Positions 7,237 to 58,485 of a stretch of DNA of 64,000 bases are shown here, piece after piece. The notes under the pieces were generated by a model. That model was not told the origin of the DNA. It worked only from the letters and a program-made list of their open reading frames with translations, and did no database searches. This stretch comes from Escherichia coli (GTDB lineage: Bacteria; Pseudomonadota; Gammaproteobacteria; Enterobacterales; Enterobacteriaceae). Location: NCBI RefSeq assembly GCF_030013205.1, contig NZ_CP122648.1; one strand, written 5' to 3'. The stretch's first letter is position 1; each line of letters starts with the position of its first letter. Both the position numbers and the translations under genes were made by a program.

Positions 7237-7393
7237 TTCAGAACACCATGATTTAAGTGTTCTTCCTCCAAATCAATTCTACCGAACTCAACCAAATTCT
7301 CCCCACATCAACCTCATTGTGTGGGTATAATTGCGGGTATACCCCAGTTCGACAGAATTTATACCCTCTTTAACGCATTCAGAAGGCTGAACT

Positions 7394-8656
7394 ATGGCAC
7401 TGACTGACGCAAAAATCCGGGCTGCAAAGCCCACTGACAAGGCTTATAAACTCACTGACGGGGCCGGCATGTTCCTGCTGGTTCATCCTAATGGTTCCCG
7501 TTACTGGCGTCTCCGCTATCGTATTCTGGGTAAGGAGAAGACTCTGGCACTTGGTGTGTATCCAGAAGTTTCTCTCTCCGAAGCTCGTACAAAACGGGAT
7601 GAGGCCCGAAAACTGATTTCAGAGGGGATTGACCCTTGCGAACAGAAAAGAGCTAAAAAAGTTGTCCCTGATTTACAGCTCTCTTTTGAACATATTGCAC
7701 GACGCTGGCATGCCAGTAATAAACAATGGGCACAATCACACAGCGATAAAGTACTCAAAAGCCTCGAGACACACGTTTTCCCCTTTATCGGCAACCGGGA
7801 TATCACAACACTCAGTACCCCGGACCTGCTTATCCCTGTTCGTGCTGCAGAAGCTAAACAAATTTATGAAATCGCCAGTCGTCTGCAGCAAAGAATATCT
7901 GCTGTAATGCGTTATGCCGTACAGTCTGGCATCATCAGATATAACCCGGCTCTGGATATGGCTGGTGCATTGACCACGGTAAAACGCCAGCATCGCCCTG
8001 CACTGGATCTTTCACGCCTGCCTGAACTTCTGTCGCGTATTGACGGTTATAAAGGCCAGCCTGTCACCCGACTGGCAGTTATGCTGAATTTACTGGTTTT
8101 TATTCGTTCCAGTGAACTCAGATACGCCCGCTGGTCTGAAATTGATATTGACAATGCCATGTGGACTATTCCAGCCGAACGCGAACCTCTGCCTGGCGTA
8201 AAATTCTCACACCGGGGCTCCAAGATGCGAACACCACATCTTGTGCCACTCAGCAAACAGGCTGTAGCCATACTGGCAGAACTACAGACATGGGCTGGTG
8301 AAAATGGTCTGATCTTTACGGGAGCACATGACCCGCATAAACCAATCAGTGAAAATACTGTAAATAAAGCCCTGAGGGTGATGGGGTATGACACAACCCA
8401 GGATGTCTGTGGCCATGGATTCCGTGCGATGGCATGTAGTGCGCTGATCGAATCAGGTTTGTGGTCCCGCGATGCTGTTGAACGTCAGATGAGCCATCAG
8501 GAACGTAACGGTGTACGCGCTGCGTATATCCATAAAGCCGAACATCTGGAAGAACGCCGGCTGATGCTACAGTGGTGGGCAGATTTTCTGAATGCGAACA
8601 GAGAGAAATGTATCAGTCCGTTTGATTATGCAAAGATCAACAATCCATTAAAATAG
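7394..8656 (+). CDS. int: P4-type tyrosine integrase
   Basis: 420 aa directly downstream of tRNA-Phe; N-terminal MALTDAKIRAAKP... and C-terminal HGFRAMA...RAAY tyrosine-recombinase signature. Confidence 0.9.
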   Translation: MALTDAKIRAAKPTDKAYKLTDGAGMFLLVHPNGSRYWRLRYRILGKEKTLALGVYPEVSLSEARTKRDEARKLISEGIDPCEQKRAKKVVPDLQLSFEHIARRWHASNKQWAQSHSDKVLKSLETHVFPFIGNRDITTLSTPDLLIPVRAAEAKQIYEIASRLQQRISAVMRYAVQSGIIRYNPALDMAGALTTVKRQHRPALDLSRLPELLSRIDGYKGQPVTRLAVMLNLLVFIRSSELRYARWSEIDIDNAMWTIPAEREPLPGVKFSHRGSKMRTPHLVPLSKQAVAILAELQTWAGENGLIFTGAHDPHKPISENTVNKALRVMGYDTTQDVCGHGFRAMACSALIESGLWSRDAVERQMSHQERNGVRAAYIHKAEHLEERRLMLQWWADFLNANREKCISPFDYAKINNPLK

Positions 8657-8819
8657 TAATAATCCCCGGGCAAAATGCCCGGGGTACTTTGAATGACTAT
8701 TTTTCTTTGGGCGTGATGAAGAAGATTGATGGTAAGACAAATTACTCCCGACTCTTACGTATTTTCATGGAAAGAAATCCCCCAATATCATCCATCGGGA
8801 TCGAGTAATAACCTGTAAT

Positions 8820-9005
8820 ATGCTGCAGGTTCCGACAGCGGCGGCAAATATGCAGCACATATTGTGCTCACTGATCGGCACCTGCCGTCTGAACAATGCG
8901 GAGTCAGAAAAATTGCTGCATTACGTCACAGATCATATGCAGGACTGGTCGGCAAACCGGGTACGCGATCTGTTGCCCTGGAAAGTTGATCTGACCTCTC
9001 AGTAA
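8820..9005 (+). pseudogene. IS66-family transposase C-terminal fragment
   Basis: 61-aa ORF ...LIGTCRLN...LLPWKVDL matches the C-terminus of the larger IS66-like fragment at 9730-10251. Confidence 0.5.
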
Positions 9006-27218: not shown

Positions 27219-28402
27219 AGTAACCTCACTACATACAGATATAAAAGCACTGCAATTTTGGCTATTAATAGCAAAAATAGCAGTCAAATCAATATGAGGT
27301 AAAAATTTTTGTTGATTTAATGGTTAAATAATAACCACAGTGTGTTTTGCTGCTGAAGAAAGACAAAATGAATCTGTGTGTCCCCTCCTTCCCTTCGGAG
27401 CATATCTACTGTTCAAATTTTACACAATCACGTACAAACAAAAAGCATCATCCCGGGTATTGCAGATACCGGTTTCCTGCCGGGAAGAATCATAAACAGA
27501 AAACCCGGAATAACACCTTCAGAAAGCGACTTCCCTCCTGAAGAATAATAAAGAAGACGATAATTCCTGTCCTGAATTCGATATTTCATGGATATGACGC
27601 CATTTTTATAAATGACAAAAAAGCATTTAATGCTGACACATCAGGAAAAACAAAATAATACCCCCCTGCCGATACAGATAAAACACACCAATTTTCTTTG
27701 AATGCTCCCGCATAATTGTCAGACAGTGATAAAAATGGGTTATGACAATCTTTCTTCAACAAAAACCTGTCTTCTGTTTTTTTACATCAGCATCCTGCTT
27801 AAATTAAACGTAAACGAGCACAGCATTTCTGTACCAGAACTAAAAATCAGCTATTATTCAGCACCCTCAATCAATAAAATCTCAACAATATTATCCGGAA
27901 CAGCATGGTACCTCTATCAAAGGTTTTTAACAGGACAATTAACATTACTGAACAGCCTTCCTGCAGAACCACTGCAAATATAAAACCAGGGCGCAGGATA
28001 AATAATCACACCCTGAAAAATGCTGTCACACAAAAAAAAATTAATCACTGCACATAATCCGGAAGCGAAATACCAAACAACCCGGTATCAACAGGTATCA
28101 TTGCGTGCGCCACTCTTATAAAAAACACACAGCAGAAGTAAGATAATTATAAACGTAATTTTAATATCTCTCTGCCCCCCACAAAAAAACACTGAAAAAA
28201 AAATACTCACATCAGTAAACATGAGCACACCTGATAATCAGGCTGTCAGAGGAATGATATTTCCCTTTTACGGGATAGTCAGCCCGCCATTGAACAATGT
28301 TCAAATCGATTCAAAATAATTTCAGACAGATATTATCGTTGTGAGTCCCCCGCCACCTTTCCGGTACGCGGGATTTTGTCTTTTTTCACCGGGAATACAT
28401 GT

Positions 28403-55291: not shown

Positions 55292-55942
55292 ATGACCCGC
55301 ACACTCAAGCCGTTAATTCTTAACACCGGCGCACTGGCGCTAACGTTAATCCTGATTTATACCGGCATTTCGGCCCGTGACAAACTCACCTGGCTGATGG
55401 AAGTGACACCGGTGATTATTGTCGTGCCGCTACTGCTTGCCACCGCTAAACGTTATCCGTTAACGCCGCTGCTCTATACGCTCATTTTCTTTCACGCCAT
55501 CATCCTGATGGTCGGCGGACAATACACCTACGCGAAAGTCCCCGTTGGTTTTGAGGTGCAGGAATGGCTGGGGTTGAGCCGTAATCCGTATGACAAACTG
55601 GGGCATTTTTTCCAGGGGCTGGTGCCTGCACTGGTGGCACGAGAGATCCTTGTGCGCGGGATGTACGTTCGCGGACATAAGATGGTGGTGTTTCTGGTCT
55701 GCTGCGTGGCGCTGGCGATAAGCGCGATGTATGAATTAATCGAGTGGTGGGCGGCGCTGGCAATGGGCCAGGGAGCGGATGATTTTCTCGGCACCCAGGG
55801 CGACCAGTGGGACACGCAATCCGATATGTTCTGCGCGCTGCTTGGCGCATTAACGACGGTGATATTCCTCGCTCGCTTTCATTGCCGCCAGCTACGGCGC
55901 TTTGGCTTAATCACCAGAGCGCCGGAAGCGATTACCCCTTAA
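55292..55942 (+). CDS. yjdF: inner-membrane protein YjdF
   Basis: 216-aa multi-TM ORF; stop overlaps melA stop on opposite strand. Confidence 0.8.
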   Translation: MTRTLKPLILNTGALALTLILIYTGISARDKLTWLMEVTPVIIVVPLLLATAKRYPLTPLLYTLIFFHAIILMVGGQYTYAKVPVGFEVQEWLGLSRNPYDKLGHFFQGLVPALVAREILVRGMYVRGHKMVVFLVCCVALAISAMYELIEWWAALAMGQGADDFLGTQGDQWDTQSDMFCALLGALTTVIFLARFHCRQLRRFGLITRAPEAITP

Positions 55943-57294
55943 CGGTGCAACCAGCCAGGCAGCCAGTCGCCGTGGGCAGCAATCAAGTCGTCAACAAGAG
56001 CATATATTTCGTCAATGCCCAGCACGGCGGCAGTATGCGGGTCCATCATCGCGGCGTGGTAAACACGGTCGCGATTTTCCGTAAGAATGGCTTCGGTCAG
56101 CAGCGTCTGTACGTTGATGTTGGTTTGCATCAGGGCGGCCAGATGCGAAGGTAGCGTACCGACTTTGGTCGGCTGAATGCCATTAGCATCAACCAGACAG
56201 GCCACTTCCACACAACATCCTTGTGGCAGGTTATCAATCAATCCATCGTTACGGACGTTGCCGTAAATCACACTCGGCTCGCCAGTCCAGATAGCGTTCA
56301 TGATTGTGCTGGCATATTCCCGTGACGGTTTAATATCAATCCGGGAGGCGTTTTTATACTCCTCCAGCTCTTTATGCCAGTTCGCCAGCTGCTCGACGCA
56401 GCGTTTCGGGTACTCATCCAGCGGTACTTTATAACGCTCAATCAAATCCTCACGACCTGGCTTAATAAACCACGGTGTGTACTCAGCAAAATGTTCTGAC
56501 GATTCCGTGACGAAGTAGCCCAGCTTTTTGAACATTTCGTAGCGCACAATATTCTGGCAGCGAGTATTGCCATGAATATTCGGCTTCGGTGCCTGCCCTG
56601 CTTCATAAGCCGCCAGCAGTTCCGGGTAGAGATTCACGTAACTGCCGTCGGCGGTTTTGCGCTCCAGTTCCAGGTAAAACGCCATATGGTTGATACCTGC
56701 ACAACGGTAACGCAGCGTAGACGGGTCGATATTGAGGTCACGCGCCAGCTCTTCCGCCGTTCCCTGCACCGAATGGCACAGCCCTACCTGTTTGATATGC
56801 GGATAGCGGGCATACATCGCCCAGGTATTCATCGCCATTGGGTTAACATAGTTGAGCATGGTGGCATCGGGGCAGACTTCCGTCATGTCCTCGCAAATTT
56901 GCCACAGATGCGGAATGGTACGTAGCGCGCGCATAATACCGCCCGGCCCCAACGTATCGGCAATGGTTTGTTCCAGACCATGCCGCTTACAGACCTCGAA
57001 ATCAGTCACCGTGCAAGGTTCATAACCGCCAATCTGAAATGCCACCACGACAAAATCAGCATCCTGTAAGGCTTCTTTCTGTTGGGTGTGGCAGGTGATT
57101 TTGCCGCTGGCCCCTGCTGAATCCATCAGCTTACGCACCACAATGTGCGACTCTTCCAGGCGGGTGGGATCAATGTCCATCAGGGCAATATGCGCCGTTT
57201 TCAGCGCCTCGCGATGGAACACATCACCAAGAATATTTTTAACGAAAATCGTCGAACCAGCGCCGATAAATGTAATTTTGGGTGCAGACATCAT
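55939..57294 (-). CDS. melA: alpha-galactosidase (NAD/Mn-dependent, GH4)
   Basis: 451 aa; N-terminal Rossmann motif GAGSTIF. Confidence 0.95.
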   Translation of the reverse strand: MMSAPKITFIGAGSTIFVKNILGDVFHREALKTAHIALMDIDPTRLEESHIVVRKLMDSAGASGKITCHTQQKEALQDADFVVVAFQIGGYEPCTVTDFEVCKRHGLEQTIADTLGPGGIMRALRTIPHLWQICEDMTEVCPDATMLNYVNPMAMNTWAMYARYPHIKQVGLCHSVQGTAEELARDLNIDPSTLRYRCAGINHMAFYLELERKTADGSYVNLYPELLAAYEAGQAPKPNIHGNTRCQNIVRYEMFKKLGYFVTESSEHFAEYTPWFIKPGREDLIERYKVPLDEYPKRCVEQLANWHKELEEYKNASRIDIKPSREYASTIMNAIWTGEPSVIYGNVRNDGLIDNLPQGCCVEVACLVDANGIQPTKVGTLPSHLAALMQTNINVQTLLTEAILTENRDRVYHAAMMDPHTAAVLGIDEIYALVDDLIAAHGDWLPGWLHR

Positions 57295-57372
57295 GCAGAT
57301 CTCCTGGCTTGCTTGAATAACTTCATCATGGCAGGCGAATCTGCAGAAAACCTCCGGCTTCCAGGTTGAGCA

Positions 57373-57426
57373 TTCCCATAAACTCAGATCCTACGTGAAG
57401 CAGCAGTAAATCTGAGTTTATGGGAA
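57373..57426. promoter_or_regulatory. 17-bp perfect inverted repeat in melA-melR divergent intergenic region (candidate operator)
   Basis: ttcccataaactcagat ... atctgagtttatgggaa separated by 20 bp. Confidence 0.4.
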
Positions 57427-57576
57427 TAAATTACCTGAAAAGCAGAGTTTTCGGCCTCAGAATGCTCGGACGGTCCCCTCGCCTCTCTGGGAAGAGAGTG
57501 AAAACCGTGCTCCCACTCGCAGTCATCCTCCCTCACTCCTGCCATAATTCTGATATTCCAGGAAAGAGAGCCATCC

Positions 57577-58485
57577 ATGAATAAAGATACGTTTATGTGC
57601 AGTAGCGACGAAAAACAGACCCGCAGCCCGCTATCGCTGTATTCGGAATACCAGCGGATGGAGATTGAGTTTCGCGCACCGCATATCATGCCCACCAGCC
57701 ACTGGCATGGTCAGGTCGAAGTGAATGTGCCTTTCGATGGCGATGTGGAATACCTGATCAACAATGAAAAAGTGAATATCAATCAGGGTCATATCACGCT
57801 GTTCTGGGCCTGTACACCGCACCAACTAACAGATACCGGAACCTGTCAGAGCATGGCGATTTTTAATCTGCCGATGCATCTGTTTCTCTCCTGGCCGCTG
57901 GATAAAGACCTGATTAACCACGTCACTCACGGTATGGTGATCAAATCACTGGCGACACAGCAACTTAGCCCGTTTGAAGTGCGCCGCTGGCAGCAGGAAT
58001 TGAACAGTCCGAACGAGCAAATTCGCCAGCTCGCCATTGATGAAATTGGCCTGATGCTCAAGCGATTTAGCCTCTCTGGCTGGGAACCGATTCTGGTCAA
58101 TAAAACCTCGCGCACACACAAAAACAGCGTCTCGCGCCATGCGCAATTTTATGTCAGCCAGATGCTGGGCTTTATTGCCGAAAACTATGATCAGGCGCTG
58201 ACCATCAACGATGTGGCTGAGCACGTCAAACTTAACGCCAACTATGCAATGGGGATATTCCAGCGGGTCATGCAATTGACGATGAAACAGTACATAACCG
58301 CGATGCGCATCAACCACGTTCGCGCGTTACTGAGCGATACCGATAAAAGTATTCTCGATATTGCCCTGACGGCAGGCTTTCGTTCAAGTAGTCGTTTTTA
58401 CAGCACGTTCGGCAAATATGTCGGCATGTCGCCGCAACAATACCGCAAACTTAGCCAACAGCGCCGCCAGACGTTTCCCGGCTAA
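57577..58485 (+). CDS. melR: AraC-family melibiose operon regulator MelR
   Basis: 302 aa; C-terminal AraC-type HTH. Confidence 0.95.
   Translation: MNKDTFMCSSDEKQTRSPLSLYSEYQRMEIEFRAPHIMPTSHWHGQVEVNVPFDGDVEYLINNEKVNINQGHITLFWACTPHQLTDTGTCQSMAIFNLPMHLFLSWPLDKDLINHVTHGMVIKSLATQQLSPFEVRRWQQELNSPNEQIRQLAIDEIGLMLKRFSLSGWEPILVNKTSRTHKNSVSRHAQFYVSQMLGFIAENYDQALTINDVAEHVKLNANYAMGIFQRVMQLTMKQYITAMRINHVRALLSDTDKSILDIALTAGFRSSSRFYSTFGKYVGMSPQQYRKLSQQRRQTFPG

Follow-up and report, generated by a model that had tools for sequence, protein, structure and literature searches.

The inverted repeat and its genomic setting

The question raised by the region between the divergent genes melA and melR of E. coli is why it carries a long and perfect inverted repeat, and in particular whether the two arms serve a DNA-binding protein or a structure that the nucleic acid itself would form. 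The DNA analysed here (the window, a stretch of 64,000 nucleotides) is from E. coli. Its melA-melR intergenic region was matched in 5,400 of 5,426 complete E. coli genomes and is 100% identical to that of strain CFSAN018748. The gene melA (55939-57294, minus strand) encodes an alpha-galactosidase of 451 aa (NCBIfam PRK15076, 736 bits), and melR (57577-58485, plus strand) encodes an AraC-family regulator of 302 aa (NCBIfam NF007693 MelR equivalog, 634 bits). RefSeq annotation of the identical genome concurs on both genes, so that these matches and this annotation bear out the divergent promoter context proposed in a first reading made from the letters alone (the sequence-only reading). Compared with K-12, MelA differs at 3 residues and MelR at a single one (T3K, 301 of 302 residues being identical). 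The outer neighbours are the arginine decarboxylase gene adiA past melR, and yjdF and fumB past melA.

The repeat is placed between the two divergent genes. It had been described as a 17-bp perfect inverted repeat with arms at 57373-57389 (ttcccataaactcagat) and 57410-57426. These arms are indeed exact reverse complements, but the perfect pairing runs one base further on each side, and the true arms are 18 bp long, with ATTCCCATAAACTCAGAT at 57372-57389 and its complement at 57410-57427. The bases just outside, C at 57371 and A at 57428, are unpaired. The arms are separated by a spacer of 20 bp (CCTACGTGAAGCAGCAGTAA), as had been stated, and the repeat sits 78-133 bp upstream of the melA ATG (57294), in agreement with the rounder figure of about 80-130 bp given beforehand. 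The complementarity continues imperfectly on both sides, with arms of 42 nt that are 76% complementary (57348-57389 and 57410-57451), and this imperfect extension spans the flanks where the MelR sites 2' and 1', described below, are located.

The repeat exceeds chance by far. A search of the 64-kb window for copies of the arm with up to 3 mismatches returned two only, both of them arms of the repeat, and at least two arm matches were obtained in none of 100 dinucleotide-preserving shuffles. In a whole-window scan for inverted repeats within 80 bp, the mel repeat was the longest spaced one, and the remaining ones were a terminator-like hairpin and short palindromes. At 2875-2912, the window harbors an inverted repeat of 18 nt whose loop measures 2 nt and which precedes a T run (AATAAAAAAGGCACGTCA / TGACGTGCCTTTTTTCTT); this element resembles a bidirectional intrinsic terminator. 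An AT-rich palindrome of 36 bp is found at 27249-27284.

Correspondence with the mapped MelR sites

The two arms almost certainly correspond to sites 2 and 1 for MelR in the melAB-melR regulatory region of E. coli, because they are identical to their K-12 counterparts and their centres match the published map. The mel regulatory region of the window is about 97% identical to that of K-12 MG1655, and both arms are identical base for base. The sequence-only reading had proposed a comparison with the mapped K-12 MelR sites, and the repeat was found to coincide with sites 2 and 1. Site 2 is the promoter-proximal arm (57372-57389), where the consensus 18-mer ATCTGAGTTTATGGGAAT lies on the minus strand. 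Site 1 is the distal arm (57410-57427), where the same 18-mer lies on the plus strand. This MelR consensus is likewise present at sites 1 and 2 in K-12 (PMC2377442).

The positions relative to the promoters could be compared by means of the K-12 landmarks, in which the melR -10 element is CATAAT, site 2 has its centre at -174.5 relative to the melR start, and the melR start is located 237 bp upstream of the melAB start (Samarasinghe et al. 2008, PMC2377442). Both starts were transferred to the window by sequence identity, using CATAAT and the published distance of 237 bp. The melR promoter (57543-57555, plus strand) thus comprises CATAAT at 57543-57548 and an inferred start at 57555, and the melAB promoter (57318-57330, minus strand) comprises an inferred start at 57318 and a -10-like CATGAT at 57325-57330, with a TG before it. 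By coordinate arithmetic, the centre of the site 2 arm falls exactly at -174.5 from the melR start, which equals -62.5 from the melAB start, and that of the site 1 arm at -100.5 from the melAB start, 38 bp beyond site 2. Relative to the melAB start, Belyaeva et al. 2000 reportedly place the other centres at about -42.5 for site 2' (57352-57369), about -81.5 for CRP1 (57389-57410), -100.5 for site 1, and about -120.5 for site 1' (57430-57447). The -62.5 centre of site 2 derives from published landmarks (PMC2377442). A promoter and terminator scan of the intergenic region returned neither a simple sigma-70 promoter nor a terminator-like site. This blank is uninformative, because both promoters are activator-dependent and have poor -35 elements.

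The sites that surround the two arms in K-12 can tentatively be placed in the window. In K-12, CRP1 is located between sites 1 and 2 (PMC2377442) and corresponds to a low-affinity CRP site within the 20-bp spacer (PMC2377442, PMC1635313), and the match of the window spacer to the CRP consensus is weak, as published for a site of this kind. Site 2' is a weak MelR site over the melAB -35 region (PMC2377442), and in its region bases are conserved across species at 57351-57355 and 57359-57362. Site 1' adjoins site 1 and is known from footprints (PMC2377442). At 57430-57447, the minus strand agrees with the consensus at 12 of 18 positions. The region of site 1' holds a conserved block at 57438-57447, with strong conservation at 57444-57447 and moderate conservation at 57453-57454. 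An alternative register on the plus strand, 57441-57458, lies 31 bp from site 1 and provides a better fit to the conservation. For both sites 2' and 1', the best consensus match and the conservation profile favour differing registers.

On the melR side, the autorepression site R (TTCTGATATTCCAGGAAA, 57548-57565, plus strand) is identical to K-12 and lies over the melR transcript start. Published site R follows the consensus at position 5, with G, and departs from it at position 13, with A, and its orientation is opposite to that of site 2 (PMC2377442). Site R of the window shows all three features. CRP2 (57503-57524), which is needed for melR transcription, is centred 41.5 bp upstream of the melR start and is identical to K-12. 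Its sequence (AACCGTGCTCCCACTCGCAGTC) contains CGTGC-N6-TCGCA.

Recognition by MelR and proposed mechanism

The sequence-only reading had suggested that the arms might represent paired operator half-sites for MelR. They almost certainly are MelR sites, but the term half-site is imprecise, each arm being a complete monomer site. In K-12, one MelR monomer occupies each 18-bp site, its two helix-turn-helix motifs contacting adjacent major grooves, and specific contacts have been described between N222 and base pair 5 and between R273 and base pair 13 (PMC2377442). DNase I footprints and gel shifts place MelR on sites 1/1', 2, and R (PMC2377442), and CRP fills the low-affinity CRP1 site with the required help of MelR (PMC1635313).

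Given that the DNA sites are identical and that MelR differs by one residue, the mechanism known for K-12 can be inferred for the window strain. The K-12 literature (PMC2377442) is the source for binding itself, for the dependence of site 2' on melibiose, and for the part played in activation and autorepression. Two MelR monomers would bind sites 2 and 1 in opposite orientations, 38 bp apart, and the MelR molecules on either side would enable CRP to fill CRP1 in the spacer. Without melibiose, MelR would occupy sites 2, 1, 1', and R, leaving the system poised, and a four-MelR complex would mediate autorepression of melR. With melibiose, the weak site 2' over the -35 region would be filled by MelR as well, and melAB would be activated by four MelR molecules together with one CRP dimer located between sites 2 and 1.

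Conservation across species

Eighty melR loci from other species were fetched, 64 of which harbor a divergent melA. An inverted pair of MelR-like 18-mers was found in all 64 melA-linked loci, and the repeat is therefore shared with other mel promoters, a point on which the sequence-only reading had made its proposal depend. For the best pair of each locus, the start-to-start distance is 38 bp (39 bp in four loci), and the pair is mostly located 76-78 bp from the melA ATG. The 64 loci range from Escherichia, Salmonella, Citrobacter, Klebsiella, Pantoea, and Serratia to Providencia, Vibrio, and Photobacterium. The two arms have a mean information content of 1.57 and 1.40 bits per position, versus 0.29 in the spacer. 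The spacer is conserved in length (20 bp) but not in sequence. Within the site, conservation is concentrated in two blocks, positions 1-7 (ATCTGAG) and 13-16 (GGGA). These blocks are separated by about one helical turn, the spacing needed by a monomer that carries two helix-turn-helix motifs.

Natural variation in MelR provides a further view of these contacts. Six orthologues from a Buttiauxella-type clade carry R273S together with R269H, and G13 is lost in 11 of their 12 arms, versus 5 of 114 arms for the orthologues that keep R273. Across the MelR orthologues and their arms, N222 is invariant and G5 nearly so. In the six Buttiauxella-type loci (L047, L048, L049, L051, L054, and L056), both substitutions fall in the second recognition helix, and arm position 13 is A or C. 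To judge from these sequences, the combination looks like a natural specificity change that matches the published R273-base pair 13 contact. The co-variation of R273S and G13 is confined to one clade and probably arose only once in evolution, so that it is supportive and does not amount to statistical proof. One of these loci, L054 (CACSKA010000008.1), is labelled Chryseobacterium sp. 18061 and harbors an enterobacterial-type melR-melA pair, whose MelR and MelA are 81% and 90% identical to those of E. coli, respectively. Mislabelling or contamination of this record is probable.

A second MelR-like paralogue, 73-83% identical and without a melA neighbour, was observed at loci L041, L052, L053, L055, L057, and L061-L069, for example in Citrobacter. 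These loci keep an upstream inverted pair of MelR-like 18-mers with the 38-bp spacing. At L063, the divergent ORF encodes 166 aa with a weak match to DUF1236, and the gene downstream is a member of the Na_H_antiporter family.

Variation within E. coli

The mel operator and the operon that it controls vary among E. coli strains. The exact K-12 56-bp unit (both arms and the spacer) is present in 2,066 of the 5,426 complete genomes (about 38%). Another unit carries G15T in site 1 (GGGAAT to GGTAAT, at the equivalent of window position 57424) and is found in exact form in 1,767 of them (about 33%). The allele was seen in loci L086 and L090-L094. All 60 distinct units analysed, 59 of which come from other species, have the same base at site position 15. 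The unit of the window differs from that of K-12 by an A in place of G at 57393, within the spacer and CRP1, and occurs in exact form in 23 of the 5,426 genomes. With CRP1 centred at -81.5, this A would remove the first G of a TGnGn half-site. CRP co-activation may be weaker in the window strain owing to A57393. A more divergent allele, found in strains Ecol_732 and FCI5, shows eight or nine spacer changes and one change in site 2, with site 1 intact.

The operon itself is altered in the window strain, where melB, encoding the melibiose permease, is absent. A stretch of 20 bp (55919-55938) stands in place of 1,665 bp of K-12 sequence including melB (7268-8932 of the K-12 locus L001). As a result of this replacement, melA and yjdF converge with a 4-bp overlap, and the yjdF product is 216 aa long, versus 209 aa, with an altered C-terminus. 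The corresponding junction (55919-55942) is found in 1,264 of the 5,426 complete E. coli genomes (about 23%), among them that of Ecol_732, a strain with the divergent allele. In about 23% of the genomes, melA is therefore the only gene driven by the MelR-controlled promoter, and with melB deleted downstream, the physiological output differs from that of K-12. This deletion is distinct from the loss of the entire mel operon described in O80:H2 (PMC11945584).

A separate case is locus L004 from E. coli AQ15 (NZ_CP043487.1, 4466187-4471316), which retains no more of the intergenic region than its distal 130 bp. The 5 kb around it are annotated as a chain of about 20 short pieces of unrelated genes (cadC, pmrB, proP, phnF, and others), and this stretch looks heavily rearranged or misassembled.

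Alternative explanations of the repeat

Binding by MelR would account for the two sites, and a separate question is why their identity is so exact. The full identity of the arms (18 of 18 positions) is seen in Escherichia and not in other genera, where exact identity appears, from the sequences, not to be needed for MelR binding. There is a slim chance that it has been kept in Escherichia for a second purpose, either a transient cruciform arising from divergent-promoter supercoiling or recurrent gene conversion. If true, such a purpose would add a structural layer to mel regulation.

It is highly improbable that the repeat works through, and is selected for, a supercoiling-driven cruciform or a transcript hairpin, as the sequence-only reading had envisaged next to MelR binding. 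The single strand does fold into an 18-bp stem of -17.6 kcal/mol, with a z-score of -8.0 versus shuffles, but this energy is the trivial outcome of any perfect repeat. Moreover, the repeat is located between the divergent starts 57318 and 57555, upstream of both, and is contained in neither mapped mRNA. The loop would be 20 nt long, and a loop of this length disfavours cruciform extrusion. A search of Rfam at permissive thresholds returned only sub-threshold, hairpin-shaped matches to plant microRNA precursors, with 27 bits versus a gathering score of 102, and these were dismissed as chance.

Among 51 units from different species, 86.4% of the cells pair, and two-sided changes are found in 39 cells versus 14.4 expected, an excess above every shuffle that would be anticipated if pairing were maintained. 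However, the excess is non-discriminating, because it is also expected for two sites of one protein or from shared ancestry, and it is partly explained by the change in the reader protein, since two-sided changes at position 13 follow the change in the MelR recognition helix. Furthermore, conservation extends to the sequence of the arms (9 invariant columns) and is not merely one of complementarity. Pairs in the middle of the stem are often broken, columns 8/49 failing to pair in 18 of the 51 units and columns 16/41 in 11. Several stem positions are unpaired in 20-55% of the species, and complementarity is low only at site positions 11, 12, 17, and 18. Outside Escherichia, the arms typically show 2-4 mismatches with each other, and up to 10. 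Within E. coli, a change in a single arm is carried by 1,767 of the 5,426 genomes, so that perfect arm identity is dispensable in the species, which argues against a structural role. Finally, the same motif stands unpaired at site R. The cruciform or hairpin was therefore not retained as the function of the repeat, given its position upstream of both starts, its 20-nt loop, the lack of conserved complementarity, and the one-arm variants.

It is extremely unlikely that the arms form one classical palindromic operator, each of them being a half-site for the same symmetric dimer, in the manner of LacI or CRP. Such an arrangement would account for the perfect symmetry of the two arms, and MelR is in monomer-dimer equilibrium (PMC2377442). 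Nevertheless, the arm centres are 38 bp apart, too far for the paired reading heads of one dimer, and each 18-bp site holds one monomer, with a CRP dimer between the sites (PMC2377442). The presence of two conserved blocks per arm, one helical turn apart, fits a single monomer of the AraC family with its two helix-turn-helix motifs. Footprints show sites 1/1' and site 2 being filled in succession and not together (PMC2377442), and full-affinity MelR binding by one arm alone has been reported for K-12 fragments without sites 1 and 1'.

The idea that the 56-bp unit is the remnant of a small mobile element can virtually be dismissed: although 18-bp terminal inverted repeats around a short variable core give it the look of a miniature transposable element, it occurs once in the window and once per genome (a median of 1 place in 5,267 genomes), lies at a fixed distance from the melA ATG in 64 loci from many genera, and has no target-site duplications at its flanks, where the bases are C and A.

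Comparison with related regulatory regions

The arms are thus best read as MelR sites 2 and 1, and the region can be placed beside those of known systems. The closest is the K-12 melAB-melR region, which shares with the window the arms, their spacing, their positions relative to both promoters, site R, CRP2, and both -10 elements, all of them identical, and differs by the spacer base at 57393 (A and not G in the window) and by the operon, which lacks melB in the window.

The araBAD-araC region is similar to mel in that an AraC-family regulator is encoded by a divergent gene, CRP acts in the control region, and monomer sites of about 17-18 bp are read by two helix-turn-helix motifs. In both systems, distant sites reinforce autorepression, a parallel that has already been drawn (PMC2377442). 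The arrangement of the sites differs, however. The AraC sites I1 and I2 are adjacent direct repeats, whereas the strongest two mel sites form an inverted pair, spaced by 38 bp and enclosing CRP. Likewise, araBAD-araC repression relies on an O2-I1 loop, whereas a four-MelR repression complex, and not a simple loop, has been argued for mel (PMC2377442).

Inverted sites are also known for RhaR and RhaS at the rhaSR and rhaBAD promoters. There, an AraC-family activator binds two inverted sites of about 17 bp, separated by about 16-17 bp, and CRP serves as co-activator. Unlike at mel, the Rha sites differ from each other, and CRP is located upstream of the pair and not in the spacer.

Significance for the mel regulon

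The repeat is already known and is an ordinary pair of MelR sites, not a new element. The MelR sites of K-12 were first described in 1989 (Webster et al.). The term 'inverted repeat' in a Sci Rep paper of 2015 (PMC4308713) refers to a protein dimer and not to the mel DNA repeat, and that candidate was set aside. For the scan, the recovery of the mel repeat from raw sequence amounts to a positive control.

The comparative gain is modest and threefold. The inverted pair keeps its fixed 38-bp spacing in Enterobacterales and as far as Vibrionaceae, natural co-variation parallels the published contact of R273 with base pair 13, and E. coli is polymorphic at the mel locus. The operator and melB variants of E. 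coli could explain strain differences in the melibiose phenotype.
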